IMG/VR virus record: IMGVR_UViG_2778261347_000002
Coordinates: 1 to 6,219 of that record
Reading direction: 5' to 3' (one strand)
Source of the DNA: a virus
Taxonomy: Duplodnaviria; Heunggongvirae; Uroviricota; Caudoviricetes
DNA: 6,219 bases
The translations under genes were made by a program, and so were the position numbers. Positions 6,062 to 6,171 of this stretch are shown piece by piece (positions within the stretch are counted from its first letter, which is position 1; every line of letters begins with the position of its first letter). A model generated the notes under the pieces. The model did no database searches. It was not told where the DNA came from and worked only from the letters and a program-made list of their open reading frames with translations.

Positions 6062-6089
6062 TATAGCATACATATCTTTATATGCTATA
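6062..6089 (+). repeat. 9-bp inverted repeat TATAGCATA ... TATGCTATA with 10-nt spacer (hairpin or operator)
   Basis: Arms 6062-6070 and 6081-6089 are perfectly complementary. Confidence 0.45.
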
Positions 6090-6143
6090 AAAGATAAGGC
6101 AGATTTATAACATACTTGCCTCAATAGAACTATCTAAGGGTTT

Positions 6144-6171
6144 GCCTCCACATATAGTGGAGGCTTTTTTT
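6144..6171 (+). terminator. strong intrinsic terminator
   Basis: 8-bp stem GCCTCCAC/GTGGAGGC (5 GC pairs), 5-nt loop ATATA, followed by a T7 tract (6165-6171). The reverse complement lacks a T-tract, so it is plus-strand specific. Confidence 0.65.

Follow-up and report, generated by a model that had tools for sequence, protein, structure and literature searches.

A conserved terminator module in the argW island of Escherichia coli and Salmonella enterica as a candidate small RNA

Introduction

What does the strong terminator-like hairpin near the end of this stretch of viral DNA terminate? The window, by which we mean the whole 6,219-nt stretch of DNA that was analysed, had been read from its letters alone as carrying, at 6062–6171, a plus-strand unit of two hairpins, the second a terminator, and this architecture had been likened to that of a bacterial small RNA (sRNA) or of the RNA antitoxin of a type I toxin–antitoxin (TA) locus. 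In our analysis the terminator proves real, and the two-hairpin architecture is not conserved. We tentatively propose that the locus encodes an unannotated island-borne sRNA with a core at 6086–6171, which would form a small non-coding transcription unit; the new evidence for this reading is an island of conservation, seen in a second genus, that ends at the T-tract.

Island-borne sRNAs often link acquired virulence genes to core regulation, and a conserved stretch that could act as an anti-ribosome-binding-site seed is therefore of interest. If the candidate is transcribed, a regulatory RNA that annotation has missed would reside on a genomic island found in lineages of clinical importance: Shiga-toxin E. 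coli of types O26, O111 and O103, E. coli ST131 and some Salmonella enterica. It adjoins regulators of fimbrial (PapB-like) and AraC type. It would at most add one more island-borne candidate to a familiar class; if the element is merely a terminator, the finding is an ordinary one.

Results and Discussion

Genomic setting

Positions 1–6197 of the window are 100% identical to the chromosomes of E. coli O26:H11 and its relatives. The annotation of one of these genomes, together with Pfam matches, shows that most of the window is the early-left region of a lambdoid, P22-like prophage (Table 1). When the gap between torI and int is aligned with strains lacking a prophage at that site, identity begins at CTGCAGGGGACACCA (4095–4109), and the right end of the prophage therefore lies at this point. 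The sequence is the att core and corresponds to the 3′ end of the tRNA-Arg gene argW. The integrase pseudogene and everything to the right of it belong to an older, degraded argW island outside the prophage, and the juxtaposition of the two elements is a tandem integration at argW. The sRNA unit, if there is one, would accordingly be a part of this island and not of the prophage.

Table 1. Coordinates of the features discussed (window positions; + denotes the plus strand)
Feature	Position	Strand	Description
Prophage genes			anti-RecBCD, Ea22-like, DUF551, DUF4752
TorI-type excisionase	3821–4021		
Tyrosine integrase gene	4285–5475		internal stop at codon 222 in the window
Upstream conserved block	6011–6053	+	40-nt windows 72–82% identical to Salmonella; further upstream 15–45%
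Poly-A run	6053–6061	+	A8 to A11, one A to C change, in eight aligned E. coli loci
Hairpin 1	6062–6089	+	nine perfect A/T-rich pairs, UAUAGCAUA/UAUGCUAUA; 10-nt loop; −7.1 kcal/mol
Conserved AU-rich body	6086–6143	+	precedes the terminator; candidate seed region
Weak hairpin 2	6097–6121	+	AGGCAG/CUUGCCU; 13-nt loop; six pairs including one G-U; −5.4 kcal/mol
Small 5-bp hairpin	6127–6143	+	GAACU/GGUUU; abuts the terminator; weak alone
Intrinsic terminator	6144–6171	+	8-bp stem, GCCTCCAC/GTGGAGGC; 5-nt loop; T7

The terminator lies in a 1.27-kb, AT-rich, ORF-free spacer of the argW island and not in the prophage. The island runs from the integrase pseudogene through the spacer to a truncated papB-like gene, and the element sits between two co-oriented units, int and papB-like. 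In ST131 and many commensals argW is followed by an intact int of 396 aa, the 1.27-kb spacer, a papB/focB-like gene interrupted by an insertion sequence (IS), and hsdR. The spacer has a G+C content of 19–33% and no ORF of more than 40 codons, and a six-frame Pfam search for gene relics within it returned the papB-like gene only; a papI-like relic ended by hairpin 1, which we had considered, was not found in that search.

IS elements have heavily degraded the island. In strain SW07164 an IS insertion/deletion has taken the integrase gene together with 5476–5936, leaving position 5937 onward intact; Through ISKpn26, window position 5937 there directly adjoins a KplE1-type intS-yfdG-yfdH′ segment. 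In strain Rb-50 the segment comprising int and the spacer adjoins sgcR and PTS gene fragments instead of argW.

Within the spacer, the plus strand of E. coli has a C-rich, G-poor tract at 5786–5860 (23 C and 3 G in 75 nt). At the matching place in Salmonella (5105–5139 of locus L094) stands a (CCAAA)n microsatellite, whose copy number in four strains is 4, 5, 5 and 7. The tract and the microsatellite resemble a Rho-loading (rut) site or a phase-variable repeat.

Distribution of the spacer segment

Among 5426 complete E. coli genomes, 241–242 have the segment 5476–6197, each as a single copy and each within the argW island. Its identity is at least 99% in 239 of 242 matching records and 95–99% in the other three. 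About 30 sites vary among E. coli copies in 1275 nt, and inside the unit the copies differ only in the lengths of the T-tract and the A-run. Being nearly identical, the E. coli copies are uninformative on constraint.

The segment is absent from 50,697 phage records and, apart from one misfiled chromosome, from 72,556 plasmids. Distant blastn searches of E. coli genomes for paralogues or diverged copies returned the single island copy only, no paralogue of the downstream spacer was found, and pattern scans of IMG/VR, of GTDB species genomes (one per species) and of metagenomes gave only E. coli-type copies. Neither the flanks of 80 related IMG/VR integrases nor those of four integrases of 72–75% identity (from Providencia, Enterobacter and two Citrobacter) contain a homologue of the spacer or block detectable by blastn or nhmmer. 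Two clusters of PapB fragments (P0011 and P0014) were considered as further lineages and rejected as E. coli-type sequence with errors. A dispersed repeat or MITE of the ERIC, REP or RSA kind was likewise rejected, the element occupying one place per genome in 241 genomes. A 3-kb contig (DYYI01000083.1) in a metagenome-assembled genome labelled Aliicoccus persicus is 99.8% identical to the E. coli island segment and is almost certainly contamination.

The terminator

The terminator hairpin, GCCTCCAC-ATATA-GTGGAGGC, occupies 6144–6164 and is followed by T7 at 6165–6171. With six G-C pairs and a folding energy of −14.6 kcal/mol it stands well above chance: it is the only terminator-like site on either strand of 5300–6219, against 0.3 expected from shuffles. 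The T-tract is T7 in the window, T8 in ST131 and T6 in Salmonella, and a U tail of this kind (about 6–7 or more) is found at the 3′ end of Hfq-type trans-acting sRNAs. The terminator sequence was not found in the searchable literature.

The further suggestion that no plus-strand ORF of meaningful length ends before the terminator is also borne out. The longest overlapping ORF has 29 codons with a TTG start (6021–6110), the integrase ORF has its end at 5475, and no gene, whether of the window or entering from beyond it, ends at the terminator. On neither strand is there an ORF that is open in both E. coli and Salmonella.

The hairpins upstream

Sequence and folding agree that a hairpin with a 9-bp stem is present upstream, where it had been described. 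Taken alone it is barely above chance, since perfect hairpins of at least 9 bp appear in 32 of 500 shuffles (6%) of the AT-rich 744-nt region. On the minus strand it is followed by U8, a run that varies from U8 to U11 among strains, and the two together could be read as a weak minus-strand terminator. In Salmonella five of its nine pairs are broken. Hairpin 1 is thus specific to the E. coli lineage, and the idea of a two-hairpin unit finds no support in the comparison.

The stems kept in both lineages are those of the invariant terminator and of the small 5-bp hairpin, all five pairs of which persist with one G-U to A-U change (RNAalifold). For hairpin 2 the comparison gives no support, as the change of G6098 to C in Salmonella breaks one of its six pairs; an alternative ‘hairpin X’ (6083–6101), which would make G6098C a covariation, was rejected at −1.9 kcal/mol in E. 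coli. With only two diverged lineages there is no compensatory covariation to count. The 121-nt stretch gives a folding z-score of −4.76 on the plus strand, relative to dinucleotide shuffles, and of −5.33 on the minus strand; as both strands fold equally well, the score reflects palindromes and not strand. We conclude that the conserved part is, on present alignments, best described as a largely unstructured AU-rich stretch followed by a terminator module.

Conservation in Salmonella enterica

A search with the truncated PapB-like fragment led to an intact 76-aa version in Salmonella enterica. The contigs concerned contain the same island at the same chromosomal site, in the order fadL-mlaA-yfdC-argW-int-spacer-papB-like-AraC/GyrI-like regulator, followed by a decayed serine-protease autotransporter, and its spacer is 1.2 kb long. 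The integrases of the two lineages are 95% identical as proteins and 79% identical at 4-fold degenerate sites, and the latter value was taken as the neutral yardstick.

Only three stretches of the spacer can be aligned by blastn: the initial ~125 nt past int, 6012–6170 (81.6% over 163 nt), and ~250 nt before papB. In a global alignment the identity is 41% over 5601–5995, 74% over 5996–6053, 51% over 6054–6085 (the hairpin 1 region), 88% over 6086–6171 (78 of 89 columns) and 49% over 6172–6480. Identity in 40-nt windows peaks at 0.88–0.92 over 6096–6175, with 0.15–0.5 on either side. The alignment is essentially perfect across GGGTTTGCCTCCACAT.T.GTGGAGGCTTTTT and breaks down directly after the T-tract. 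By this comparison the terminator and the ~58 nt before it are the best-conserved non-coding DNA of the spacer, and the 3′ edge of conservation coincides, within a few bases of the T-tract, with the predicted end of a transcript.

All eight pairs of the terminator stem are invariant between E. coli and Salmonella, with no substitution at any of the 16 stem positions; both of the substitutions that the terminator has suffered are in the loop (ATATA to ATCTT). Conservation over the 58 nt upstream equals that of the stem itself. This stretch includes an invariant 20-mer, TATAACATACTTGCCTCAAT (6106–6125), which contains a CCUC motif resembling an anti-Shine-Dalgarno sequence and lies, in the two lineages compared, in a region without robust conserved structure. 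From these properties we infer that the stretch may function as a seed.

Measured against the yardstick, the identity over 6086–6171 (88% versus 79%) has a binomial P of about 0.03. The excess over synonymous sites is modest and the contrast with the flanks large; however, the flanks, which cannot be aligned, may owe their divergence to indels and microsatellite turnover rather than to relaxed selection.

A candidate small RNA

The core at 6086–6171 comprises an AU-rich, mostly unstructured stretch containing ACUUGCCUCAAU, the 5-bp hairpin, the strong Rho-independent terminator and a U7 tail, a layout that matches the standard 3′ module of the Hfq-binding sRNAs of enterobacteria. The predicted RNA would be read from the plus strand, end at about 6171 and measure 75–120 nt; it may depend on Hfq. 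It would act in trans by base pairing through the conserved single-stranded stretch, its target probably being a ribosome-binding site of the form GAGG-N5-AUG, which the seed CAUACUUGCCUC would mask. Predicted pairing energies to the initiation regions of the int, torI, papB-like and AraC-like genes are no better than those of shuffled controls.

The earlier remark that no convincing promoter could be recognised holds: upstream on the plus strand a consensus scan gives no hit, and a position-weight scan shows no strong sigma-70 site conserved in position. The upstream conserved block has TG at 6039–6040 and AAAAAT at 6042–6047, aligned with TG-a-AATATT in Salmonella; this candidate extended −10 element (6039–6047) has a low position-weight score. 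It may be a weak promoter within 6011–6053, with transcription starting near 6054, in which case the RNA would be ~118 nt long and would carry hairpin 1 at its 5′ end. Alternatively, the RNA could be processed from a longer transcript. A third and less likely source is read-through from int, both because the intervening C-rich, G-poor tract would favour termination by Rho, a step that is presumed, and because the unit persists in SW07164, from which int and 5476–5936 have been lost.

The sRNA reading thus draws on the lack of a meaningful ORF, on the unique strong terminator, on the edge of conservation at the T-tract and on the retention of the unit in SW07164 despite the loss of the integrase gene. 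Against it stand the failure to find a promoter conserved in position, the restriction of the comparison to two lineages, the modest excess of conservation, the lack of significant pairing to the initiation regions of neighbouring genes, and the negative searches for a homologue beside related integrases, among phages and plasmids and in further species.

A plain terminator as a possible alternative

The main rival to an sRNA is a plain conserved terminator between the integrase gene and the papB-like regulatory region, an explanation that we find plausible if somewhat doubtful. The hairpin would be the first intrinsic stop for plus-strand transcription arriving from the island int or from a lost cargo gene. 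It would insulate the AT-rich, H-NS-type regulatory region of the papB-like gene from that transcription, with no discrete regulatory RNA accumulating. The position of the element between co-oriented int and papB-like units suits a terminator, as do the negative results of both promoter scans and a level of conservation only slightly above the neutral benchmark; furthermore, no other plus-strand terminator is found between the integrase stop codon and 6144–6171 in either E. coli or Salmonella. The hairpin is, however, 669 nt beyond that stop codon in E. coli and 596 nt beyond it in Salmonella, and Rho, if loaded on the C-rich, G-poor tract in between, would be expected to act earlier. For a bare terminator, moreover, a stem and a T-tract would suffice, whereas here conservation extends equally over the 58 nt upstream, and the unit has outlived the integrase gene in SW07164.

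The retroregulator tI/sib of phage lambda offers a known precedent for a conserved terminator hairpin that follows a tyrosine integrase gene in the same orientation. The present element differs in not being adjacent to the integrase gene, from which about 600–670 nt of non-conserved DNA separate it, in showing no evident extended hairpin of the RNase III type, and in that the att site of this integrase family lies upstream of int.

A functionless block as a further possibility

A second alternative, which we consider unlikely, is that the block is without function, an orphan terminator of a long-lost gene within a stretch of mosaic, fast-turnover AT-rich spacer that has so far been spared indels or replacement. 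The microsatellite and homopolymer instability of the spacer is consistent with this, as are the degradation of the island by IS elements, the reduction of the integrase gene in the window to a pseudogene and the availability of only two lineages for comparison. It does not readily account for a 3′ edge of conservation that falls within a few bases of the T-tract, nor for the way in which the terminator substitutions avoid all 16 stem positions, and the six-frame Pfam search shows no relic of an upstream gene.

Coding potential and the type I toxin–antitoxin reading

The reverse complement of the invariant 20-mer, ATTGAGGCAAGTATG, comprises a Shine-Dalgarno sequence and a start codon, with GAGG at 6123–6120 and ATG at 6114–6112 on the minus strand. 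In Salmonella this GAGG-N5-ATG opens a 31-codon ORF, MLYICVFFYNAFIYGIDINLTEENISEITVK, with a hydrophobic N-terminal half, and the best-conserved stretch of the locus is exactly antisense to its initiation region. The convergent small hydrophobic ORF that the sequence-only reading had recommended looking for thus exists in Salmonella but is interrupted in E. coli, where the same frame, in the window and in every copy examined, has stops at codons 3 and 12; opposite the RNA the window contains no intact hydrophobic toxin ORF.

These observations could be taken as the remnant of a type I TA system, in which a plus-strand antisense RNA covers the ribosome-binding site and start codon of a minus-strand peptide gene that is now dead in E. 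coli, and in which hairpin 1 with its U8 could terminate the minus-strand transcript. We regard this as very unlikely. The differences between E. coli and Salmonella in the minus-strand frame number 7, 10 and 5 at codon positions 1, 2 and 3, and with no third-position excess nothing points to selection on the protein. The hydrophobic run is only about 15 residues long and the tail is acidic, a combination that is, to our knowledge, unlike the known type I toxins. Searches with the Salmonella 31-aa peptide against Pfam and NCBIfam gave no match at E values up to 10, no antitoxin family in Rfam is matched, and no conserved minus-strand promoter was found. By our estimate, roughly 6% of frames would stay open over this length in such AT-rich DNA.

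The antitoxin proposal is not supported, the sole convergent small ORF being open in Salmonella only and matching no toxin family. A type I reading is unlikely overall and conceivable for the Salmonella lineage. Its fullest form, an undescribed type I TA module of the argW island of which E. coli keeps an orphan antisense RNA, possibly reused as a trans-acting regulator, is equally improbable. The likeness to SymR/SymE and Sib/Ibs lies in an RNA that ends in a terminator and is antisense to a Shine-Dalgarno sequence and ATG, with a short ORF in Salmonella; unlike those loci, the present one has an ORF that is broken in E. coli, neither coding-type conservation nor a full transmembrane segment, and no match to a known toxin or antitoxin family.

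Also confined to Salmonella is an ATG directly after the T-tract that opens a 30-codon plus-strand ORF, MPLKQRESTLNSQEWQKLLSNQKTAVNKKH (5415–5507 of locus L094). It is absent from E. coli and probably fortuitous.

Comparison with known small RNAs

The covariance search against Rfam that had been suggested (Rfam 15, whole window) assigns the locus to no family at gathering or E-value thresholds, and the same holds for the Salmonella copy. The best sub-threshold match in the window is to Arrc14 (RF02860), at 31.3 bits against a gathering threshold of 99 and with an alignment that skips 76 model positions; JA04 (RF02732) follows at 21–26 bits against a threshold of 81 and is the best match of the Salmonella copy (25.6). 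Arrc14 and JA04 are sRNAs of Pasteurellaceae whose likeness to the candidate is an end-to-end match resting on a terminator preceded by an AU-rich linker and, at the 5′ end, a short hairpin. The best sub-threshold matches are all to plus-strand models of terminator-ended sRNAs, and they reflect a generic architecture, not homology.

Among the Hfq-dependent sRNAs known from islands and prophages of pathogenic E. coli and Salmonella are Esr41, PapR and the Pas sRNAs (PMC8565820, PMC4546395, bioRxiv 10.64898/2026.05.13.724894). The candidate resembles them in predicted size (~70–120 nt), in its intergenic position within horizontally acquired DNA, in its patchy occurrence among strains, and in the combination of an AU-rich single-stranded body with a GC-rich Rho-independent terminator and a long U tail. 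Expression and Hfq binding, demonstrated for those RNAs, are predictions for the argW-island candidate. Esr41 is set apart by locus alone, lying between z1181 and z1182 in O-island 43 and not at argW, and the Pas sRNAs of EPEC reside in lambdoid prophages, whereas the argW-island block is absent from the 50,697 phage records. PapR, a UPEC sRNA that controls papI, was followed up owing to the papB-like neighbour. It starts with CGGGCTGAAGTCCGG and ends with ...TCTCCCAGCGCGGGCTTTTTTT according to its cloning primers (S3 Table, PMC4546395); these 5′ and 3′ ends are absent from 6000–6197, and PapR was rejected as unrelated in sequence.

Other features of the window

The last 22 bases of the window, 6198–6219 (CTGTATCATATACACATCTGAC), are unlike every other copy of the locus, all of which read TTTATTCCTGTAATC... 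at this place. They match at 20 of 22 positions the sequence CTGTCTCTTATACACATCTGAC, which we take to be the Illumina Nextera/Tn5 mosaic-end read-through adapter. Two metagenome contigs likewise end at 6196. The likeliest origin of the tail is adapter left untrimmed where a contig ends, and a plus-strand promoter-like hit at 6177–6206 is to be ignored because it is built on these adapter-like bases.

Several short repeats were noted in and around the island. A direct repeat, GGGTAAAATA, occurs twice, 12 nt apart, at 4016–4037 in the attR arm, beginning in the last bases of torI; the two copies may be arm-type sites for the integrase or excisionase. Inverted copies of TTTTACCCA(A) are found at 5045–5055 and just past the terminator at 6168–6177, the latter being not kept in Salmonella and probably due to chance. 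An 11-bp perfect inverted repeat, GGCTGACTTAA/TTAAGTCAGCC (5491–5501 and 5541–5551, 39 nt apart), begins 16 nt past the integrase stop codon. Its base is kept in Salmonella by a double change, from GGCTGAC/GTCAGCC to GGCTGAT/ATCAGCC, and the repeat may serve as a hairpin that stabilises the 3′ end or as a site for protein binding.
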